64,000 bases of DNA from Candidatus Kaiserbacteria bacterium (GTDB lineage Bacteria; Patescibacteriota; Minisyncoccia; Phycocordibacterales; UBA2100). The position numbers and the translations under genes were made by a program. How positions within the stretch are numbered: position 1 is the stretch's first letter; each line of letters opens with the position of its first letter. The notes beneath the pieces were generated by a model, which saw only the letters and a program-made list of their open reading frames with translations, was not told the DNA's origin and did not search any database. The DNA is taken from contig JACRFI010000015.1 in NCBI GenBank assembly GCA_016217965.1, positions 16,366 to 80,365 of the forward strand. Reading direction: 5' to 3'. Below, piece after piece: positions 5,544 through 50,605 of the stretch.

Positions 5544-7457
5544 ATGACCCTTAACGAGATCCGCTCGAAATATCTCGCTTTTTTTAAGGCCCAGGGCCAC
5601 ACAATTATTCCCTCAGCTCCTGTCGTTCCTGAGAACGATCCGACGACACTATTTACCGGCAGCGGCATGCAGCCATTGGTGCCGTATCTGCTAGGGAAAG
5701 ATCATCCGTCCGGAAAGCGGCTTGTGAATTCCCAAAAAAGTTTCCGCGCGATGGATATCGAAGAAGTGGGAGACAACAGGCATACGACATTTTTTGAAAT
5801 GCTCGGGAATTGGTCTTTGGGTGATTATTTCAAGAGAGAGCAATTACCGTGGTTCTTCGAATTTCTCACAAAGGTGGTAGGGCTCGATCCTGCAAGATTG
5901 TATGTGACCGTCTTTCTCGGTGATGAGAAAAATAACGTGCCGCGCGATACAGACTCTGCTGAAATATGGAAAAACATATTCTCCAGCGTCGGCATAGATG
6001 CAAAAGACGTATTAATTGGCTCAGAAGAGGAGGGATACAAGAAGGGAATGCAAGGCGGGCGCATCTTTTTCTACGATGCGAAGAAAAATTGGTGGAGCCG
6101 TGCCGGAGTTCCGGAAAATATGCCGGCAGGGGAGCCGGGTGGACCTGATTCTGAGGTGTTTTACGACTTCGGGACGCCTCACGATGAGAAGTTCGGAAAC
6201 AACTGCCACCCAAATTGCGATTGCGGCAGATTCCTCGAGATAGGAAATTCTGTCTTCATGCAGTACATAAAGAAGGATGACGGCTCCTTCGGGCTCTTAC
6301 CAAAACAAAATGTTGATTTTGGAGGCGGACTTGAGCGCATCTCGGCTGCATCAATAGGGAACTCGGACGTTTTCAGAACGGATGTATTCGAGGAGGCAAT
6401 ACTGCTTCTTGAAAAATTCTCAGAAAAAACGTATGGCGATGCGAAATTCACGCGTTCATTCAGGATAATTCTGGACCACATTCGGGCAGCAACGTTTATG
6501 ATCGCGGACGGAGTGCGGCCGTCGAACACCGAGAGAGGGTATGTACTTCGCCGGCTTATTCGGCGCGCCGTACAGCATGCGAACAAGCTGGGGGTGGCGG
6601 AAGATCCGACGGACGATACGATACTAGTACGGTGTGCGACGCTTTTTACGGAAGAATACGGAGATGCCTATCCGGAGTTGAACGACGAGGTGGTGTGGAG
6701 TGCCATCAAAGAAGAGATAGCAAAAGAAGAAAAACAATTCCAACAAACACTCCAGAAAGGCCTTCGTGAATTTGAGAAAATGATCTCCGGAGATATCACG
6801 GGAGAGCAGGCCTATCTTCTTTTTACATCGTATGGGTTTCCATTCGAAATGACGATGGAACTCGCGAAAGAAAGGAACGTCTCGATTGATGAAGCCGGTT
6901 TCAGGGAGTACATGAAAAGACATCAGGAGCTTTCTCGCGCAGGCGCCGAGCAGAAATTCAAAGGCGGGTTAGCGGATCATTCGGAAAAAACGACGCGGCT
7001 TCATACCGCGCACCACCTTCTTCTCAAAGCATTGCAACTTGTTCTAGGCGTCCATGTAAAGCAGCGTGGTTCGAACATAACACAAGAGCGATTGCGCATA
7101 GATTTCTCGCATGGAGAGAAGATGACCAAGGAGCAGATTGCAGAAGTGGAGAGGATAGTTAACAAGAAAATACACGAAGAGCTTCCAGTGACTCGCAGCA
7201 TACTCCCCAAAGAAAAAGCGGAAAGCTTGGGTGCGGAGCATGAGTTCGGCGCGAAATATCCTGACATGGTCTCGGTATATTCCGTCGGTCCCGCCGACGC
7301 TTCTGAATCGGATCCGCAATTTGATAAAGCGTTTTCGATAGAATTTTGTGGTGGACCACATGTTGAGAACACGAGCGAACTCGCGGGGACATTCAAGATA
7401 CAGAAGGAAGAAGCTGTCGCCTCCGGCATCCGCCGCATCAAAGCTATCCTTCAGTAG
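5544..7457 (+). CDS. alaS: alanine--tRNA ligase, short form lacking C-Ala domain
   Basis: N-terminal AlaRS catalytic motifs (FTGSGMQP, FFEMLGNWS), editing-domain HxxxH (HTAHHLL) and CGGPH; 637 aa only. Confidence 0.85.
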   Translation: MTLNEIRSKYLAFFKAQGHTIIPSAPVVPENDPTTLFTGSGMQPLVPYLLGKDHPSGKRLVNSQKSFRAMDIEEVGDNRHTTFFEMLGNWSLGDYFKREQLPWFFEFLTKVVGLDPARLYVTVFLGDEKNNVPRDTDSAEIWKNIFSSVGIDAKDVLIGSEEEGYKKGMQGGRIFFYDAKKNWWSRAGVPENMPAGEPGGPDSEVFYDFGTPHDEKFGNNCHPNCDCGRFLEIGNSVFMQYIKKDDGSFGLLPKQNVDFGGGLERISAASIGNSDVFRTDVFEEAILLLEKFSEKTYGDAKFTRSFRIILDHIRAATFMIADGVRPSNTERGYVLRRLIRRAVQHANKLGVAEDPTDDTILVRCATLFTEEYGDAYPELNDEVVWSAIKEEIAKEEKQFQQTLQKGLREFEKMISGDITGEQAYLLFTSYGFPFEMTMELAKERNVSIDEAGFREYMKRHQELSRAGAEQKFKGGLADHSEKTTRLHTAHHLLLKALQLVLGVHVKQRGSNITQERLRIDFSHGEKMTKEQIAEVERIVNKKIHEELPVTRSILPKEKAESLGAEHEFGAKYPDMVSVYSVGPADASESDPQFDKAFSIEFCGGPHVENTSELAGTFKIQKEEAVASGIRRIKAILQ

Positions 7458-26574: not shown

Positions 26575-27510
26575 ATGCAGCGGCTTTTGACAGGACTCCA
26601 ACCTTCTGGTGTATTGCACATCGGGAATTATCTCGGTGCTTTGAAGCCTTTTTCTGAAATGTATTCACAGTACGAAAGTTTCCTGATGGTCGCTGATTAC
26701 CATGCCCTGACTTCGCTTCGGGATCCTGAGGCTCTGCGGGCAAATATTCGCGACATCGTGCGAAGCTATGTTGCGGCAGGCGTTGACCCAAAAAAGGCTG
26801 TGATATTTCAGCAGTCGAGAGTCCAGGAGCATACAGAGCTTGCTTGGATATTCGAATGCCTCGTTACGGTCCCATTCCTGGAACTCTCGCACGCGTACAA
26901 AGACAAAGTGGCAAAAGGACTAGAGGCGAACGCGGGACTCTTTAACTATCCGATGCTAATGGCAGCGGACATTCTTCTTTACGATACTGATGTCGTGCCA
27001 GTCGGTGCGGACCAGAGGCAGCATTTGGAGTATGCGCGTGAGGCGGCAGCAAAATTCAACAACTCGTACGGCGATGTTTTAAAAGAACCCCAGGCAAAGA
27101 TATTGGAATCAGTTGCAGTTGTGCCTGGCACCGATGGAAAGAAAATGAGCAAGAGTTATGGAAACACAATTCCTCTGTATGAGCCGAAAGATGTTCTTGT
27201 GAAAGCGGTCATGTCCATTGTCACAGATTCGTCCGGAGAATTGCCTCAGAATGTGTACGAGATACATAAGCATTTCAAGAGCAAAAAAGAGCTTGACGCA
27301 CTGTACGAATCAAACAAGGGAAAGTATAAAGTATTGAAAGAAGCCCTTATCGATGACATTGAGAAAATTGTCGCTCCGATGAGAGAGATATACGAGAGCA
27401 TTACGGACGCGGATGTGGAGCGCATCCTTAAAGAGGGGAGTGATAGGGCGCGTGAGTATGCGGCCGCAAAGATGAAAGCGGTGCGCAGCAGCATTGGCGT
27501 CACTATATGA
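26575..27510 (+). CDS. trpS: tryptophan--tRNA ligase
   Basis: TGLQPSGVLHIGNYLGA (HIGH) and KMSKS; 311 aa. Confidence 0.9.
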   Translation: MQRLLTGLQPSGVLHIGNYLGALKPFSEMYSQYESFLMVADYHALTSLRDPEALRANIRDIVRSYVAAGVDPKKAVIFQQSRVQEHTELAWIFECLVTVPFLELSHAYKDKVAKGLEANAGLFNYPMLMAADILLYDTDVVPVGADQRQHLEYAREAAAKFNNSYGDVLKEPQAKILESVAVVPGTDGKKMSKSYGNTIPLYEPKDVLVKAVMSIVTDSSGELPQNVYEIHKHFKSKKELDALYESNKGKYKVLKEALIDDIEKIVAPMREIYESITDADVERILKEGSDRAREYAAAKMKAVRSSIGVTI

Positions 27511-28904
27511 AAAACAGAGTCTATATCAATCAACTGCGGGAACATATTGGTAATACCGTGATCATTGCCGGTTGGGTATCCGTTCGTCGTGATCAGGGCA
27601 AGATGGTCTTTTTTGATATACGTGACATGACGGGAACGGTGCAAACAGTAGTTCTCACAAAGAGCCCAGCGCTGGAGAGTGCGAAACAAACAAGCAGGGA
27701 ATCCGCAGTAGCTATCACGGGTATTGTGAACAAACGGCCGGAAAAGAATGTGATGGCAGGTGTGCAAAACGGAGATATAGAAGTTTCTGTCGAAAAAATC
27801 GAGATACTGGGAGCCTCCGACGCACCGCCTTTTGAAATAATAGAAGACACGTCGATGATAAGCGAAGAAGTGCGCCTCACCTACAGATACTTGGACCTCA
27901 GGAGTGAGAGGATGCAGAGAAACATACGCTCGCGCAGCGAATTTGTGCGCCTCTGCCGCGAGTATCTTTTCAATGCTATGTTCACTGAAATAGAAACACC
28001 GCTTCTTACCGAATCAACGCCCGAAGGCTCCCGCGATTTCGTCGTTCCCTCGCGCTTGCATCCGGGTTCTTTTTACGCGCTCCCGCAATCTCCGCAACAG
28101 TACAAGCAACTTTTAATGGTGGCGGGGATGGAACGATATTTCCAAATTGCTCGGGCAGTGCGAGACGAAGACTTGCGAGCCGATAGGGGGTTCGAACATT
28201 CACAAATTGACATTGAGATGTCCTTTGTCGAGCAGGAAGATGTCATGGCGCTTGTTGAGACGATGATAATCGAGGTTGCCGAAAAGATGGGGAAAGTTTT
28301 AAAGCAAAAGCCATTCCCGCGCTTTACATACGCGGAAGCGATGGAAAAATTCGGCGCGGATAAATTCGACCTAAGAGATGATGAAGAAAAATCGAAGGGA
28401 ATTCTCGCATTCGCGTGGGTGCACAGATTTCCGTTCTTTGAAAAGACGGATGGCGGTGATTGGACGTTCACTCATAACCCATTCTCAATGCCGCTCTCCG
28501 AGCACATTGATGATGTGCTAGCGGGAAAGAATACAGAGAACATCCTCACTGCCCAATACGATCTCGTATGCAACGGACATGAGACAGGCGGAGGTTCCAT
28601 CCGTTCACATCGGCCGGACATTCTGAGAGCCGTATACAAGACCATGGGGTATGACGATGCTCGGATAGAACAGAGCGTCGGCCACATGCTGGAAGCCTTC
28701 AGGTATGGCGCCCCGCCGCATGGAGGGATAGCGATCGGAATAGAGAGGATGTTGATGACCGTCATGGGGGAGAATTATTTGCGTGAAGTACAAGCGTTCC
28801 CGATGACACGCGGAGGGCAAACTGCTGTCATGAAAGCACCGAAGCCGCTGAGTGACAAACAGCTGTCCGAACTTGGGCTCGAGATAAAGAAGAAAACAAA
28901 ATGA
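27507..28904 (+). CDS. aspS: aspartate--tRNA ligase, short (archaeal/non-discriminating type)
   Basis: Class IIb OB-fold N-terminus, LPQSPQQYKQLLMVAG (AspRS-type), motif 3 GAPPHGGIAIGIERMLM; ATGA overlap with trpS stop. Confidence 0.8.
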   Translation: MKNRVYINQLREHIGNTVIIAGWVSVRRDQGKMVFFDIRDMTGTVQTVVLTKSPALESAKQTSRESAVAITGIVNKRPEKNVMAGVQNGDIEVSVEKIEILGASDAPPFEIIEDTSMISEEVRLTYRYLDLRSERMQRNIRSRSEFVRLCREYLFNAMFTEIETPLLTESTPEGSRDFVVPSRLHPGSFYALPQSPQQYKQLLMVAGMERYFQIARAVRDEDLRADRGFEHSQIDIEMSFVEQEDVMALVETMIIEVAEKMGKVLKQKPFPRFTYAEAMEKFGADKFDLRDDEEKSKGILAFAWVHRFPFFEKTDGGDWTFTHNPFSMPLSEHIDDVLAGKNTENILTAQYDLVCNGHETGGGSIRSHRPDILRAVYKTMGYDDARIEQSVGHMLEAFRYGAPPHGGIAIGIERMLMTVMGENYLREVQAFPMTRGGQTAVMKAPKPLSDKQLSELGLEIKKKTK

Positions 28905-34800: not shown

Positions 34801-36138
34801 ATGTCCATACGTGTTCGTTTCCCCCCAAGTCCCACTGGCTACTGCCACGTTGGCACTGCACGAATGGCAATAGTGAACTATTTGTTCGCAAAGAAAAATG
34901 GCGGGCAGATAGTATTTCGCAGTGAAGATACGGATAAGGAGCGTAGCAAAAAAGAATTTGAAGCTGACATTATCGAGCAGCTTCACTGGCTGGGGCTCGG
35001 TTGGGATGAGTTTTATCGCCAATCGGAGCGCACGGAGATATATAGAAAGGCAATCCATGACCTGATAGGGGAGGGTAAGGCGTATGTTTCCGAAGAAGAG
35101 AGCAAGAAAGAGCCCGGCAAAATGGCGCAAGTCATTCGCCTAAAGAATCCGGGTCGGACCATCACTTTTACAGATGTCGTACGCGGCGACATTACGTTCG
35201 ACACGACGGAGCTTGGCGATTTCGCGATAGCGCGAGCAGAGGATGACCCGCTGTATCATCTCGCGGTTGTCGTGGACGACGCGGACATGGGCATCACACA
35301 TGTCATTCGCGGCGAAGACCATATTTCTAACACCCCGCGACAAATCCTCATCCAGGAAGCGCTGGGTGCATCGCGGCCCGTCTATGCGCACTACCCGTTG
35401 CATCTTTCAGCTGACCGCTCCAAGCTCTCAAAGCGAAAGGGCGATGTAGCAGTTCGAAGTTACCGCGAGAAAGGATTCCTTTCGCAAGCGCTGCTGAATT
35501 ATCTTGCGGCATTGGGATGGACCCCACCGTCTGGGAAAGAGATACTTTCGCTTACGGAAATGATTGCGGAATTCAAACTTGAAGATCTACACAAAAGCGG
35601 AGCTGTTTTCGATACTGAAAAACTCCGATGGTTCAACAGAGAGTACCTTGTTCAACTGAGCGACGATGAATTTACGCCTATCGCAATGGAATGGCTTAAA
35701 AAATCTCACACACACCTCTCTTGGAATGAATCGATCGCCGCGAAGATCATTCCCAGCCTGCGAGAACGCATATCCGTCTGGAGTGATATCGAGACGCTTG
35801 CCTCCGAGGGTGATCTTGATTATTTCTTTACCGCGCCAACATTGTACGGGAAGTCGATACCGATGAAGAAAATTGATATCGAGACAACTCAGCGGCACTT
35901 ACAGCATATCGTTTCGGTTCTCCAGAATATGCCGGCGCAATTTAGTGCGGAAGAGATAAAGAGCGCACTATGGGATTACGCCACTACAGAGGGCAGGGGA
36001 GCTGTCTTGTGGCCTCTCAGGTACGTACTCAGCGGCAAGGACAAATCGCCCGACCCGTTCTTTATCGCGTCAGTTATTGGTAAGGATGAGGCACTGGAGC
36101 GCGTCAACACTGGTATATCGGCGCTTCTTTCATCATGA
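34801..36138 (+). CDS. gltX: glutamate--tRNA ligase
   Basis: RFPPSPTGYCHVGTAR (HIGH variant) and KLSKR; 445 aa. Confidence 0.9.
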   Translation: MSIRVRFPPSPTGYCHVGTARMAIVNYLFAKKNGGQIVFRSEDTDKERSKKEFEADIIEQLHWLGLGWDEFYRQSERTEIYRKAIHDLIGEGKAYVSEEESKKEPGKMAQVIRLKNPGRTITFTDVVRGDITFDTTELGDFAIARAEDDPLYHLAVVVDDADMGITHVIRGEDHISNTPRQILIQEALGASRPVYAHYPLHLSADRSKLSKRKGDVAVRSYREKGFLSQALLNYLAALGWTPPSGKEILSLTEMIAEFKLEDLHKSGAVFDTEKLRWFNREYLVQLSDDEFTPIAMEWLKKSHTHLSWNESIAAKIIPSLRERISVWSDIETLASEGDLDYFFTAPTLYGKSIPMKKIDIETTQRHLQHIVSVLQNMPAQFSAEEIKSALWDYATTEGRGAVLWPLRYVLSGKDKSPDPFFIASVIGKDEALERVNTGISALLSS

Positions 36139-46148: not shown

Positions 46149-47663
46149 ATGGGCGCCTTTCTCGAATTCCTTGCAAGCATGTATGCGCTTGCTATTGATC
46201 CTCTTGGCGCGTGGGGGCAGGCTCGCACAGAGTCCGAGTACCATGCAAGGAGACTGCGTTTTTTCAATACGCTTACTGGGAAAAAAGAAGCATTTTCTTC
46301 ACTCGAAAAAAATGTAGTAAAAATGTACAACTGTGGGCCTACGGTGTACGGCTTGCAACACATCGGCAATCTTTCAATGTTCGTATTCGTGGATATTCTC
46401 CGCCGCACGCTGGAATACAACAATCTCCATGTAAAACAAGTCATAAATTTTACGGACGTTGGGCACCTATCTTCTGACGCTGATGAAGGCGAAGACAAGA
46501 TGGTAAAAGGGCTCACGCGCGATGGGTTAGCGCTCACACTGGATAACATGCGCGCCTTGGGCAAGAAATATGCTGATCTTTTTCTAGCGGACCTCTCCAC
46601 TCTGAACATTAATACGAAAGGCACTGCATTTCCGCGGGCGTCTGACTACATTCCGCAACAAATTGAGATGGTTACGGCACTTGAGCAAAAAGGATTCGCA
46701 TATAAAGGTGAGAGCGGCGTGTACTTCGACACGTCGAAATTTTCTGAATATGGCGCACTCGGCAATATAGATCTGAGGGGCATACGCGAAGGTGCGCGCG
46801 TATCCGCAAGTTCAGAAAAACGTAGTCCTACAGATTTTTTACTTTGGAAGCTGAGCGGTAAGGACGGATTGGGATGGGAAAGCCCGTGGGGCAAGGGCTA
46901 TCCTGGTTGGCACATTGAATGTTCCGCGATGAGCCGCGATATTTTGGGCGATCAGATAGATATTCATACCGGTGGCATCGAGCACATCCCCATCCATCAC
47001 AACAATGAGATAGCGCAATCGGAATCTGCGACAGGCAAGAAACCTTTCTCGCGTTTCTGGCTGCATAGAGCCCACCTGCAGATCGAAGGAGGGAAAATAG
47101 CAAAATCGACCGGCAACACGGTGTTCCTTTCCGAAATTATCGACCGCGGCTTCCCTGCCCTCGCACTCCGGTACCTCCTCCTGGGTGCACATTACCGAAC
47201 TCCAGCGAGCTTTACGTGGGAAGGCATGAAAGCCGCACAAACCTCCCTGTATCGCCTCTATAACGCGTACGACACCTTTAAACATGCAGACACCTCTGGC
47301 GGCGAGAGTGCCAGCGGATACCGTGCGCGCTTCATAGAACGCATCAATGACGATTTGGATACGCCCGGCGCGCTGGCCGCGGTCTGGGAAATGGTGAGAG
47401 ACGAGAAAATTTCGGCAGCGGAAAAGAAAGATGCGCTAGAATCATTTGACTCGGTATTAGGGCTCGGCATTGCAGAGGGCGCTAACTCACAATCAGTCGC
47501 ACTGGAAAGCATGCCCGAGCAAGTCCGCGCCCTTATAACGGCGCGTGAGGACGCAAGAAAAACAAAAGATTGGTCGAGAGCAGATGAACTTCGCGTCAAA
47601 ATCGATGCTGCCGGATTCGCGGTGAAAGACAGCGAGAAGGGGCCTATTGTTACGAAGAAGTAA
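46149..47663 (+). CDS. cysS: cysteine--tRNA ligase
   Basis: CGPTVYGLQHIGN (HIGH), zinc-binding Cys/His pattern, KIAKSTGN (KMSKS-like). Confidence 0.85.
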   Translation: MGAFLEFLASMYALAIDPLGAWGQARTESEYHARRLRFFNTLTGKKEAFSSLEKNVVKMYNCGPTVYGLQHIGNLSMFVFVDILRRTLEYNNLHVKQVINFTDVGHLSSDADEGEDKMVKGLTRDGLALTLDNMRALGKKYADLFLADLSTLNINTKGTAFPRASDYIPQQIEMVTALEQKGFAYKGESGVYFDTSKFSEYGALGNIDLRGIREGARVSASSEKRSPTDFLLWKLSGKDGLGWESPWGKGYPGWHIECSAMSRDILGDQIDIHTGGIEHIPIHHNNEIAQSESATGKKPFSRFWLHRAHLQIEGGKIAKSTGNTVFLSEIIDRGFPALALRYLLLGAHYRTPASFTWEGMKAAQTSLYRLYNAYDTFKHADTSGGESASGYRARFIERINDDLDTPGALAAVWEMVRDEKISAAEKKDALESFDSVLGLGIAEGANSQSVALESMPEQVRALITAREDARKTKDWSRADELRVKIDAAGFAVKDSEKGPIVTKK

Positions 47664-47692
47664 GCCCGGGCACTTTCCTATAGTGCTTGGGC
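47664..47692. terminator. shared stem-loop between convergent cysS and leuS
   Basis: GCCCGGGCACT / AGTGCTTGGGC 11-bp stem (two G-U pairs) with 7-nt loop; no clear U-tract; 3' arm overlaps the leuS C-terminal codons. Confidence 0.35.
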
Positions 47693-50605
47693 AATGACGA
47701 GGTTTACGATTCGTCCCTTCACGTAAATCACTTTTAGTACCTGCCTACCCTCTAGCCATTTTGCCCCAGCTTCGATCGCTTTCGTTTTCGCACTCTCTTC
47801 ACTCTCTTCAGGAGAAATAGATATTTGAGTGCGAGTCTTGCCATTGATTTGAACAGCAACTGATACCGTGTCAGCCACTAGTTTCCCTGCTTTAAATGCT
47901 GGCCATTTTTCAAGATGAATTGATTTCTTGTGGCCGAGCTCGGCCCATAGTTCGTCCGCGATATGTGGCGCGAAAGGCGATAAAAGCCGAAGTACTATTT
48001 CGAATTGGGCCTTTGAAATTCCGGCGCGCTCGGCTTCGTTCAGGAACGACATCATCTGTGCTATTGCGGTATTGAATTTCAAAGCCGGAATGTCTTCTGA
48101 GACTTTCTTGATCGTCTTGTGAAGAGAGATTTCGATCTCTTCGCCTCCTTTTCCTATCTTTTCGCGTAGTCGCCACACGCGCTCTAAAAAGCGCCGGACT
48201 CCTACAACACCATCCGGGTTCCATGGATACGTCGAGACCTCGTTGTACGGACCCACGAACGCGAGGTACATGCGCACCGTATCAGCGCCAAGCTGTGCAA
48301 CTACAGAGTCCGGGTCGATGACATTTCCTCTCGATTTCGACATCTTCTGGCCATCAGGCCCCAGAATGAGCGAACGGTTCATGCGCCGCGTGTACGGTTC
48401 AGGATCCATTGCCAGCTTGAGGTCGAAAAGTGCTTTCTGCCAAAACCGCGAATACAGGACGTGCATTGTGGTGTGTTCGGCGCCGCCCGAGTATAGATTG
48501 ATAGGCATCCACGCTTTTTGCTTTTTTGGTTCTGAGAACAGTTTCTTATTTTTCGGATCAATGTAGCGGAGGAAATACCAAGAAGAATCGACGAAGGTGT
48601 CGAGTGTATCTGTCTCGCGTTCTGCATGCCCTTTGCATTTCGGACACTTCACATTCACCCACTTGCGTACCTTTGCAAGTGGCGAGCGGCCGCTTCCATC
48701 CGGCAGGTAGTCTTTGACCTCCGGCAACTTCACGGGAAGATCTTTATCTGGCACTGCAACTTGGCCGCAAGTTTTGCAGTGGATTATCGGAATGGGAACT
48801 CCCCAGTACCTCTGGCGGGAAACTATCCAGTCACGCAGTTTGTACGTCTTCTTCTGCGTGCCGAACTCTGTAGTCATTTTTGATCGCGCCTCTTTGCTGT
48901 CTATTCCGGAGAAGTTCGCCGAATTCACAAGCCTTCCCTCTCCTGTATATGTACCTGTCTCAATTTTTCCTGATGAAATAACGTCACGGATCGGCAAATT
49001 AAACTTCTTTGCAAATTCGAAATCACGTTCATCGTGAGCAGGTACCGCCATGATGGCGCCAGTGCCGTAGTGCGCCAGCACATAATCGGCGACGTATATT
49101 GGTATTTTCTCGCCCGTTGCAGGATTTATCGCCTCGACTCCTCCCAATCTGACCCCGGTCTTTTCTTTCTGTTCAGCCATCCTCTCTAATTCTGTCTTCT
49201 TCGCCGCCTGATCAACGTACGCTTGCACTTCTGCGTTGTTTTGCAGAACTGTTTTATGGCTGAGTGCGAGCGTTACCCATTGATGCTCGGGTGCAAGCAC
49301 AAGATACGTGGCACCATAGAGCGTATCAGCCCGCGTCGTAAATACACGAATTGTAGGACGAATCCACATAAGAAAATCAGGCTCTCTGTCGGCAGTAAAG
49401 TGCTCTTGGATCGCGTTCGTCTCAACTAGTTGCGCGTCTATAGTTTTAGCGAGCTCTTGTAAATAGGGAGCACGCGCTTTTTCCTGAAGATCGGAAAGAA
49501 CCAAACGGGAGTCTGTGTTCTGCTTGATTTTCTGCACATCGAGCTTCCAATTGAAATCTTTCCAAAACGGCCGTCGAATAGCCGTAGGAAAATTTGGGTC
49601 TACTGCTGGTGCTATGACAACAAGTCGTGCAATTTTGCGCTTCAATTTTTCCGCAACCTTCATCGCGACAAGTCCGCCAAGGCTATGCCCAACAACAATC
49701 GTATTTTCATCGTAGGTTGTAGCTGATAGCGCCGTTGCAACTTGTTCCGATTCTTTTGGGGTATCAGTGTTGGGCAACGCGGGAATGACCACTTCATGCC
49801 CCAATTCTTCTAACTTCTTTTTGACCCACTGCCAACGTGGTCGATTCGGATTACTTTTATAGCCGTGCAAAAGCACAAACTTGTATTTCTTTCCAAGATC
49901 AAGACCAAAATCAATCTCGGCGCCTTCGCTGCGACCTATCCAATTGCGTTGGGATTCTTTTATTTGCTCTGGCCAGTCCAGTTCTTTCAGGTCATCGACA
50001 AGCCGGTCAGCATATTTTGTGATCCTCAGATTCCACTGCAGCATCTGTTTCTGGATCACCTCCGTCTTACAGCGCTCGCAGCGCCCATCCACAACCTGCT
50101 CGTTCGCAAGCACAGTTTTGCACGACGGGCACCAGTTCACTGCCGTTTCCTTCCGATATGCCAGTCCATTCTTGAAGAATTGGAGAAACTGCCACTGAGT
50201 CCATTTGTAATATTCGGGATCACACGTGATGACTTCCCGAGACCAATCGAAGGATGCTCCCATGGACGCCATCTGTTTTTTCATGTAGGCGATATTGCCA
50301 TACGTCCACTTTCTGGGGTTCAGTTTGTTTTTTATCGCGGCATTCTCTGCCGGAAGCCCAAATGCATCGAAGCCGATCGGATACAACACATTTTTTCCTT
50401 GCATCCGCAAATGGCGCGTCAAAATGTCAGGCACCGAGAATGCGTACCAGTGGCCAACGTGGAGATTTCCCGAAGGGTATGGGAATTCTGTAAGAAGGTA
50501 GTAATTTTTCTTTCCTTTTACCGTATCTGCAGTCTTGTAGAGCTTCGCTTTCGCCCATTTTTGTTGCCATTTCTTTTCTATTTTGCGATGGTCATACTTT
50601 CGCAT
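47678..50605 (-). CDS. leuS: leucine--tRNA ligase with an inserted alpha/beta-hydrolase (RBBP9/YdeN-like serine hydrolase) domain
   Basis: HVGH and KMSKS class-I motifs, CP1 editing domain (TTRADTLYGATY...), anticodon-binding C-terminus; residues ~234-420 form an extra GHSLGG hydrolase domain; 975 aa. Confidence 0.85.
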   Translation of the reverse strand: MRKYDHRKIEKKWQQKWAKAKLYKTADTVKGKKNYYLLTEFPYPSGNLHVGHWYAFSVPDILTRHLRMQGKNVLYPIGFDAFGLPAENAAIKNKLNPRKWTYGNIAYMKKQMASMGASFDWSREVITCDPEYYKWTQWQFLQFFKNGLAYRKETAVNWCPSCKTVLANEQVVDGRCERCKTEVIQKQMLQWNLRITKYADRLVDDLKELDWPEQIKESQRNWIGRSEGAEIDFGLDLGKKYKFVLLHGYKSNPNRPRWQWVKKKLEELGHEVVIPALPNTDTPKESEQVATALSATTYDENTIVVGHSLGGLVAMKVAEKLKRKIARLVVIAPAVDPNFPTAIRRPFWKDFNWKLDVQKIKQNTDSRLVLSDLQEKARAPYLQELAKTIDAQLVETNAIQEHFTADREPDFLMWIRPTIRVFTTRADTLYGATYLVLAPEHQWVTLALSHKTVLQNNAEVQAYVDQAAKKTELERMAEQKEKTGVRLGGVEAINPATGEKIPIYVADYVLAHYGTGAIMAVPAHDERDFEFAKKFNLPIRDVISSGKIETGTYTGEGRLVNSANFSGIDSKEARSKMTTEFGTQKKTYKLRDWIVSRQRYWGVPIPIIHCKTCGQVAVPDKDLPVKLPEVKDYLPDGSGRSPLAKVRKWVNVKCPKCKGHAERETDTLDTFVDSSWYFLRYIDPKNKKLFSEPKKQKAWMPINLYSGGAEHTTMHVLYSRFWQKALFDLKLAMDPEPYTRRMNRSLILGPDGQKMSKSRGNVIDPDSVVAQLGADTVRMYLAFVGPYNEVSTYPWNPDGVVGVRRFLERVWRLREKIGKGGEEIEISLHKTIKKVSEDIPALKFNTAIAQMMSFLNEAERAGISKAQFEIVLRLLSPFAPHIADELWAELGHKKSIHLEKWPAFKAGKLVADTVSVAVQINGKTRTQISISPEESEESAKTKAIEAGAKWLEGRQVLKVIYVKGRIVNLVIAQAL

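Follow-up and report, generated by a model that had tools for sequence, protein, structure and literature searches.

A leucyl-tRNA synthetase (LeuRS) gene, leuS, located in a 64,000-nucleotide stretch of a Candidatus Kaiserbacteria contig (JACRFI010000015.1, positions 16,366 to 80,365; hereafter the window), was found to encode a complete alpha/beta serine hydrolase domain of the RBBP9/YdeN family, inserted in frame next to the threonine-rich motif of the CP1 editing domain. Kaiserbacteria are members of the Parcubacteria/Patescibacteria group, within the candidate phyla radiation. The explanation that we favor, with moderate confidence, is a composite one, in which an intact LeuRS carries a nested, autonomous, and exchangeable hydrolase and the host is chiefly a carrier. 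Sequence comparisons indicate that the guest is the same unit as a free-standing enzyme of ~180 amino acids, that it resides in many hosts and at many sites, and that it has been exchanged horizontally. A first-pass annotation of the window, made from the DNA alone, had recognized the insertion and suggested that it could provide LeuRS with an extra deacylation or proofreading activity, or serve in moonlighting ester hydrolysis; the description of the insertion was upheld by the analyses below, whereas the functional proposal was not.

The product of leuS is identical to the NCBI entry MBI5456605.1, annotated as 'leucine--tRNA ligase [Candidatus Kaiserbacteria bacterium]' and encoded on a 138-kb contig. 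The protein matched TIGR00396 with 964.8 bits (cut-off 548.4), and the match was split, extending to residue ~233 and resuming over residues 418–971. Both sequence and fold searches of the PDB gave LeuRS as the top matches throughout, and the full-length fold search recovered LeuRS structures only. The HIGH and KMSKS motifs as well as the CP1 Thr-rich motif and Asp are present (Table 1). When the protein was compared with PDB chains using phmmer, residues 1–236 aligned with residues 1–237 of the Thermus thermophilus LeuRS and residues 419–749 with residues 243–579. Therefore, ~182 residues (237–418) replace a five-residue turn. The Pfam model of CP1 (PF13603) was likewise divided, with residues 418–579 corresponding to profile positions 22–182 and the first ~21 positions preceding the insert, which places the guest within the first beta-hairpin of CP1. 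The overall GC content runs without a break across leuS. The third-position GC content is 0.44 in the insert versus 0.54 in the remainder of the gene, a difference that fits a separate history of the guest but derives from a small sample of 182 codons. No significant direct or inverted DNA repeats were found flanking the insert.

With the full-length LeuRS as the query, the 120 closest homologues (60–76% identity) were drawn from NCBI, JGI, ENA, and Logan assemblies. All 120 contained an alpha/beta-hydrolase Pfam match and an insert of ~200 residues at the same site. The mean identity to the window protein was 49% for the insert and 70% for the host part. An AlphaFold model of the full-length protein reached a predicted local distance difference test score (pLDDT) of 89.7 and a predicted template modeling score (pTM) of 0.78, with pLDDT values of 93–98 across the insert and both junctions. 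In this model, the guest lies between host strands 224–236 and 418–423, joined to them by linkers that are only 5 and 2 residues long. The probability that the protein represents an assembly chimera, a frameshift fusion, or a separate open reading frame (ORF) mis-joined to leuS is negligible: no evidence in support of such an error was found, whereas the frame is continuous over 975 residues, the same junctions recur in 120 independent homologues from four data sources, and the model is confident over both junctions. An assembly artefact is ruled out, and the claims of the first-pass annotation that the insertion is real and in frame and that it is conserved within leuS across the lineage both hold. 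The editing domain had also been described as intact, in agreement with the retention of T423, T424, R425, D427, T428, and D525 in 119–120 of the 120 relatives. The conserved motifs and the presence of only one LeuRS gene in the window suggest that leuS encodes a functional bacterial-type LeuRS that would be active with the guest in place. A second insertion, a NUDIX domain (PF00293, about 150 amino acids) after residue ~544–551, was present in 80 of the 120 relatives and is missing from the window protein. The relatives form two length classes, of about 975 amino acids and, with NUDIX, about 1125 amino acids.

The identity of the guest had been proposed from its nucleophile elbow and motif order, and a Pfam search confirmed it. 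The insert matched PF06821 with 35.8 bits (gathering score 22), and a profile built from the inserts recovered YdeN (2.9e-23) and RBBP9 (1.3e-21) over the full length, the next family following at 1e-5. The fold is that of a compact, lid-less alpha/beta hydrolase of about 180 residues, as expected for this family. Residues H247, G248, G306, G310, and H402 are present in all 120 relatives, S308 in 119, and D372 in 118, and position 375 is acidic throughout (87 Asp, 33 Glu). Thus the predicted catalytic triad is complete, with D372 and E375 as two candidates for the acid. The HG dipeptide, Ser308, His402, and the acid at 372 or 375 appear to be under purifying selection. The guest also contains two subfamily-specific motifs, W-x-F-D and H-F-x4-E-P, and the C-terminal half of the module exists in two variants, LHDPxDYA... 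and LSDLQE..R.PYL..., in a mosaic distribution. The insert might instead be a catalytically dead structural appendage, kept since a clean deletion is impossible. In favor of this reading, the insert evolves faster than the host, as seen in the mean identities given above, and Ser or Asp has been lost in a few relatives (P0122, P0044, P0095; P0163, P0189). We nevertheless consider a pseudoenzyme very unlikely, as Ser, His, HG, and the acid are kept in 118–120 of 120 relatives even though identity in the remainder of the domain drops to about 30%. The YbaK/ProX, AlaX, and DTD editing families gave no Pfam or NCBIfam match on the insert or on the whole protein.

Inteins were also considered and rejected. 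No Hint, intein, or LAGLIDADG Pfam match was obtained on the leuS protein at E ≤ 1, and the junctions, which read ...DFGLD/LGKKY... and ...IRPT/IRVF..., contain neither the Cys/Ser/Thr nor the HN residues of inteins, as had been noted from the sequence. In a different form of processing, the hydrolase would cut LeuRS at or near the junctions to give a two-piece synthetase. Split LeuRS enzymes do exist in nature, as in Aquifex. Cleavage of peptide bonds is known from family members (PMC8866121). Such self-processing is highly improbable here, however, since no junction residues are conserved across hosts beyond the module itself and the linkers are short and well ordered in the AlphaFold model. 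Furthermore, RBBP9 is an exopeptidase that requires a free alpha-amine (PMC8866121).

The distribution of the module was then examined with queries of several kinds. When 1.84 billion cluster representatives were searched exhaustively using HMMER, the insert yielded 1071 matches at E ≤ 1e-3, 133 of which were at E ≤ 1e-10, and the long matches were assigned to host sites from their LeuRS segments and Pfam domains. Within LeuRS, the hydrolase was found at no fewer than four sites. Site A, which is that of the window protein, holds it in many LeuRS, in tandem with NUDIX in P0139 and P0140. Site B, a zinc-knuckle hairpin (HCxxCG/xVPVP) just after CP1, holds it in P0152, P0174, P0188, P0201, P0253, L012, and L013, and in these proteins site A is empty or otherwise filled. 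Site C, the CP1 loop that harbors NUDIX elsewhere, is occupied by the hydrolase in P0223, P0257, and P0281, and site D, a loop between two helices where the anticodon-binding domain begins, in P0267. Hosts other than LeuRS include ValRS (P0194), AlaRS (P0190), methionyl-tRNA formyltransferase (Fmt, P0207), TsaD (P0189), the GTPase Der/EngA (P0226), SecA (P0187, also P0297 and P0299), and UvrA (P0180). In these essential proteins of Patescibacteria, the module is nested at the tips of hairpins or loops. A profile search with the modules from non-LeuRS hosts returned 19 proteins and confirmed the SecA-embedded copies, and several of the non-LeuRS hosts were recovered on multiple independent contigs or from multiple data sources. 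In every host the limits of the module are constant, from ...K-x-[YF]-x-[FVI]-x-L-H-G to H-F-x4-E-P-x-[VIL]-L. These tallies count sequences, not events, and depend on the queries used.

The same unit also exists on its own. Free-standing proteins of 178–189 amino acids (P0146, P0148, P0155, P0156) match the insert over their whole length. Metagenome contigs were also scanned for the motifs of the module, without any LeuRS query, and 60 true modules were identified, about 35–40 of them free-standing ORFs and 18 embedded; the latter comprised 15 at LeuRS site A, 2 in IleRS, and 1 fused to a nucleotidyltransferase-like domain. Two further searches were less informative: that of a 5.8-billion-protein index with the insert alone returned only weak free-standing matches, within the sensitivity limits of a word index, and a locus search with the GHSLG pattern (a narrower alignment) returned mostly generic hydrolases, with only L001–L013 of 80 genome loci being relevant. 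The neighborhoods of two related free-standing copies were examined; the gene lies beside rmuC, to which it is translationally coupled, and neither an adjacent tRNA or synthetase gene nor another functional clue was seen.

Host and guest have conflicting histories. Among the 120 LeuRS, identity over the host part and identity over the insert were essentially uncorrelated (Pearson r 0.13). The hosts of P0017, P0018, P0022, and P0044 are 82%, 80%, 78%, and 77% identical to that of the window protein, with inserts that are 49%, 49%, 32%, and 28% identical, respectively; P0027 combines a host of 70% identity with an insert of 67% identity. In close hosts, identity is 0.93–1.0 in the 15-residue windows flanking the insert and falls abruptly at the very limits of the module. 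The one site is shared by three module types, and host identity is 72% within a type versus 71% between types. In neighbor-joining (NJ) bootstrap analysis of the host columns, P0022 grouped with the window protein, apart from the hosts of its own module type, in 100 of 100 replicates. With the insert columns, P0022 grouped with its module type, apart from the window protein, in 100 of 100 replicates, an arrangement recovered in 0 of 100 with the host columns. These conflicts show that modules were replaced or recombined at the same site. Homologous recombination via the highly conserved flanks would be the most economical route of exchange. An NJ tree that combined the modules of every context, without support values and with star-like deep branches, showed embedded and free-standing modules interleaved: the cluster-1 LeuRS modules and the SecA module each grouped with a different free-standing protein, and P0153 (LeuRS site A) grouped with P0155. 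All trees were distance-based. A scan of viral contigs yielded no close relatives of the module, and there is therefore no sign of phage carriage.

The loops used by the hydrolase are shared by unrelated enzymes, namely NUDIX, GNAT, low-molecular-weight (LMW) phosphatase, and IS200-like domains, and the hydrolase is frequently accompanied by such small enzymes, similarly nested. One LeuRS (P0253) contains a GNAT acetyltransferase at site A (residues 324–420) in addition to the hydrolase at site B, and another (P0176) has site A filled in frame by an IS200-like Y1 transposase domain (residues 269–374), again with the hydrolase at site B. A single IleRS (L008; 2372–7477, plus strand) combines an LMW-phosphatase domain (phosphotyrosine phosphatase/ArsC-like), a NUDIX domain, and two YdeN-like modules. 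As a separate observation, IleRS of Saccharibacteria (L008; also L009, L010, L102, and L150) contain up to four nested enzymes, at and shortly after the site before WTTTPWT. The LeuRS of a Patescibacteria metagenome-assembled genome (L003) contains three guests, with the hydrolase at site A and NUDIX-like segments, assigned from sequence only, at site C and at a fifth site. This fifth site lies between ...DYADRLLRDLD and LDWPESIKEAQRNW, near residues ~207–209 of the window protein.

Several observations weigh against the favored explanation. The hosts are skewed toward the class Ia editing synthetases: LeuRS made up 48 of the ~57 long matches in the library search, in which a LeuRS-derived query introduces bias, and 17 of the 18 embedded modules in the motif scan were in LeuRS or IleRS. 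The IleRS of Saccharibacteria (L008–L010) contain the module at the equivalent of LeuRS site A, a homologous position that immediately precedes their Thr-rich editing motif, WTTTPWT. This skew could mean a functional link instead of mere permissiveness. In addition, the alignment with the guest shows no conservation of Glu108, the alpha-amine-binding residue of RBBP9, and the substrate specificity of RBBP9 therefore cannot be transferred to it.

The link envisaged in the first-pass annotation was an extra proofreading or deacylation module. Acting in cis next to the CP1 site, such a module would clear mischarged aminoacyl-tRNA-Leu or aminoacyl-adenylates that are non-cognate. Consistent with this proposal, the guest stops four residues short of the Thr-rich motif, the IleRS module occupies the corresponding position, and the embedded copies are mostly in LeuRS, IleRS, and ValRS and also in AlaRS and Fmt, all of which handle aminoacyl-tRNA. 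Moreover, RBBP9 traps single Leu, Ile, and Met acyl groups and needs a free alpha-amine (PMC8866121), which is compatible with aminoacyl esters. We still regard cis-acting proofreading as unlikely. The CP1 editing residues are fully conserved, leaving nothing to replace, and the module also occurs at a distance from CP1 within LeuRS (site D), as well as in SecA, UvrA, Der, and TsaD. NUDIX, GNAT, and IS200-like domains fill the same site A, and the module types are swapped regardless of host lineage. Finally, the free-standing gene is common, and the two examined neighborhoods, beside rmuC, lacked a tRNA or synthetase gene. The idea of a LeuRS-specific module is thus not sustained.

The guest might instead be coupled to the synthetase in some other manner, either as an aminopeptidase or esterase that provides class Ia synthetases with hydrophobic amino acids in a peptide-scavenging organism or, together with the NUDIX and GNAT guests, by detoxifying antibiotics that mimic aminoacyl-adenylates at the target of these compounds. 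RBBP9 is an aminopeptidase for hydrophobic N-terminal residues (PMC8866121), LeuRS, IleRS, and ValRS are enriched among the hosts, and GNAT and NUDIX domains accompany the hydrolase in these synthetases. Known immunity enzymes acting against aminoacyl-nucleotide antibiotics are HIT hydrolases, the GNAT MccE, and MccF, a serine peptidase that cleaves the amide of the aminoacyl-AMP. We consider such coupling rather improbable: the argument proceeds by analogy throughout, non-synthetase hosts exist, MccF belongs to a different peptidase family than the module, the alpha-amine-binding Glu of RBBP9 is not conserved, and no defense-system match was obtained with PADLOC at E ≤ 0.01.

The composite of an intact LeuRS and an autonomous, exchangeable guest remains the reading that we prefer. 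In it, the guest hydrolase would work as an enzyme in its own right, adding to CP1 editing without replacing it and probably without mechanistic coupling to the charging of tRNA-Leu. LeuRS, as a large essential protein with several permissive hairpins, would serve mainly as a constitutively expressed and deletion-proof carrier. We interpret the arrangement in terms of the strongly reductive, deletion-biased lineages in which it is found, where in-frame nesting within an essential gene might protect the guest gene from loss; such protection would explain why several unrelated small housekeeping enzymes pile up in the same loops. Our best guess for the chemistry of the guest, by analogy with RBBP9, is that it hydrolyzes aminoacyl or peptidyl amides or esters, because RBBP9, the sole characterized member of the family, makes single-residue acyl-enzymes. 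The human protein is an aminopeptidase that depends on a free alpha-amine and forms acyl-enzyme intermediates with single Leu/Ile, Met, Phe, Tyr, and Trp residues (PMC8866121). Given that class Ia synthetases outnumber the other hosts by a wide margin, a looser functional tie of the guest to aminoacyl chemistry may exist. More tentatively, the YdeN-like, NUDIX, GNAT, LMW-phosphatase, and IS200-like domains could together be a new kind of genetic element, a group of in-frame guest cassettes of Patescibacteria that has so far escaped recognition, although we are inclined to doubt it. Such enzymes would colonize the hairpin tips of essential proteins, stay in the mature protein, and spread by recombination between lineages and hosts. 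This would amount to an intein-like ecology without splicing, with the class Ia synthetases as the main refuge, possibly since aminoacyl-hydrolase chemistry is useful there.

Compared with known RBBP9/YdeN hydrolases (PF06821; PDB 1uxo, 2qs9, 7oex), to which it is 21–23% identical in the solved structures, the guest differs in being nested in another protein, in not conserving the alpha-amine-binding Glu108 of RBBP9, and in having its own W-x-F-D and H-F-x4-E-P motifs. The CP1 domain of class Ia synthetases is itself inserted into a Rossmann fold via two antiparallel strands, and the guest uses the CP1 hairpin likewise, but CP1 folds differently and acts on a substrate that is known, mischarged tRNA. 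In a 2026 survey of 2.7 million classified domains, LeuRS editing domains were exclusively inserts and never hosts (PMC13114784), whereas here CP1 acts as a host. A curated precedent is available in the IleRS with an inserted GNAT (NCBIfam NF040702, ileS_w_GNAT), which also joins a class Ia synthetase and an unrelated small enzyme, although both guest and host differ; no curated LeuRS-hydrolase model was among the NCBIfam matches of the leuS protein. Like inteins, the module is located in frame in conserved loops of essential proteins and at homologous sites of paralogues, is exchanged horizontally independent of the host, and has free or degenerate forms. Unlike inteins, it has no Hint fold, junction residues, or endonuclease, is evidently retained in the mature protein, and possesses its own enzymatic triad. 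The immunity enzymes MccF and MccE are a serine hydrolase and a GNAT acting on aminoacyl-nucleotide compounds that target synthetases, and the same enzyme classes are nested here, but MccF is an S66 peptidase and the guest a YdeN-type hydrolase.

The first-pass annotation had not recognized the architecture as described, and our literature search agreed with it: no paper was found on a hydrolase nested in LeuRS or on the wider pattern of nested enzymes. Such proteins are already present in public records, labelled for example 'leucyl-tRNA synthetase/predicted alpha/beta hydrolase family esterase', 'alpha/beta fold hydrolase', 'NUDIX domain-containing protein', or 'hypothetical protein'. Synthetases that carry an additional inserted domain are a known kind of arrangement, and the LeuRS with a hydrolase guest is a further variant of it. 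Few enzymes have been studied as thoroughly as the aminoacyl-tRNA synthetases, in which CP1 is viewed as a dedicated insert that never acts as a host, yet here it hosts a second hydrolase that looks active. The pattern spans a whole radiation of uncultivated bacteria, in which one and the same module moves among sites and among essential proteins. A guest acting on aminoacyl substrates would add a new layer to translational quality control, to the supply of amino acids, or to self-protection against antibiotics. A guest that is an autonomous passenger would exemplify a mode of genome organization in ultra-small bacteria whereby small enzymes are sheltered in essential genes and exchanged horizontally. 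The arrangement also bears on protein annotation in these lineages and on the alignment of marker genes such as leuS for phylogeny. As a single polypeptide, the LeuRS-guest protein is open to direct expression and testing.

Table 1. Features of leuS and its nested hydrolase domain in the 64-kb window (Tt, Thermus thermophilus).
Feature	Position	Strand	Remarks
leuS, 975-aa bacterial-type leucyl-tRNA synthetase	47678–50605	–	Single uninterrupted ORF; MBI5456605.1
Host N-terminal part, residues 1–236	49898–50605	–	Rossmann first half, zinc module, and first CP1 hairpin strand; ends ...NWIGRSEGAEIDFGLD; aligns with Tt LeuRS 1–237
HIGH motif HVGH, residues 49–52	50450–50461	–	H49 kept in 120/120 relatives, H52 in 119/120
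Guest domain, complete RBBP9/YdeN-family alpha/beta serine hydrolase, residues 237–418	49352–49897	–	Limits checked by translation
HG dipeptide, H247-G248	49862–49867	–	Right after strand beta1 (DSSP), usual oxyanion-hole position; kept in 120/120
Nucleophile elbow G306-H-S308-L-G310	49676–49690	–	Ser308 codon 49682–49684; strand-to-helix; aligns with RBBP9 Ser75
Predicted catalytic-acid region D372-L-Q-E375	49481–49492	–	E375 aligns with RBBP9 Asp138; D372 closes the preceding strand
Predicted catalytic His402 (HF motif)	49400–49402	–	Kept in 120/120; aligns with RBBP9 His165
CP1 editing domain remainder, residues 419–~585	48851–49351	–	PF13603; aligns with Tt LeuRS from residue 243
Thr-rich editing motif FTTRADT, residues 422–428	49322–49342	–	Begins four residues past the guest end; kept in 119–120/120
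Editing-site Asp525 within GTGAIMAVPAHD	49031–49033	–	Tt LeuRS alignment and conservation in relatives
Empty second guest site SSGKIETG, residues 544–551 (CP1 loop)	48953–48976	–	NUDIX here in 80/120 relatives
Empty guest site B, zinc-knuckle hairpin HCKTCGQVA, residues 609–617	48755–48781	–	Holds the hydrolase in other Patescibacteria LeuRS
KMSKS motif, residues 754–758	48332–48346	–	Kept in 120/120 relatives
Empty guest site D, helix-helix loop opening the anticodon-binding domain, residues 812–830	48116–48172	–	Holds the hydrolase in P0267

A few further observations were made on copies of the module outside LeuRS. In the modules of P0180 (UvrA) and P0207 (Fmt), WHSLWW replaces GHSLGG, with Trp at an otherwise invariant Gly. 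This substitution would be expected if UGA encodes Gly in the source organism, as in the Gracilibacteria/Absconditabacteria-type code, and was read as Trp by the gene caller; the guest module would then reach lineages of that type too. In L114, a 377-aa ORF, a YdeN-like module is fused C-terminally to a DGGWGVDALL...HGDID domain that appears nucleotidyltransferase-like by eye. The free-standing YdeN-like gene of L081–L085 (6001–6567 in L081 and L082) overlaps the end of the upstream rmuC by 4 nt, within a conserved neighborhood of Zip, RmuC, hydrolase, BacA, trehalase-like, YajQ, and RadC genes; one of these contigs is 1.07 Mb long.

No tRNA genes or Rfam families were found in the whole window. 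Six aminoacyl-tRNA synthetase genes are present, encoding AlaRS (5544–7457, only 637 aa), TrpRS (26575–27510), an Asp/Asn-type class II enzyme (27507–28904), GluRS (34801–36138), CysRS (46149–47663), and LeuRS (47678–50605), and LeuRS is the only one of the six to contain the hydrolase module. The CysRS gene is convergent with leuS, the two being 14 nt apart.

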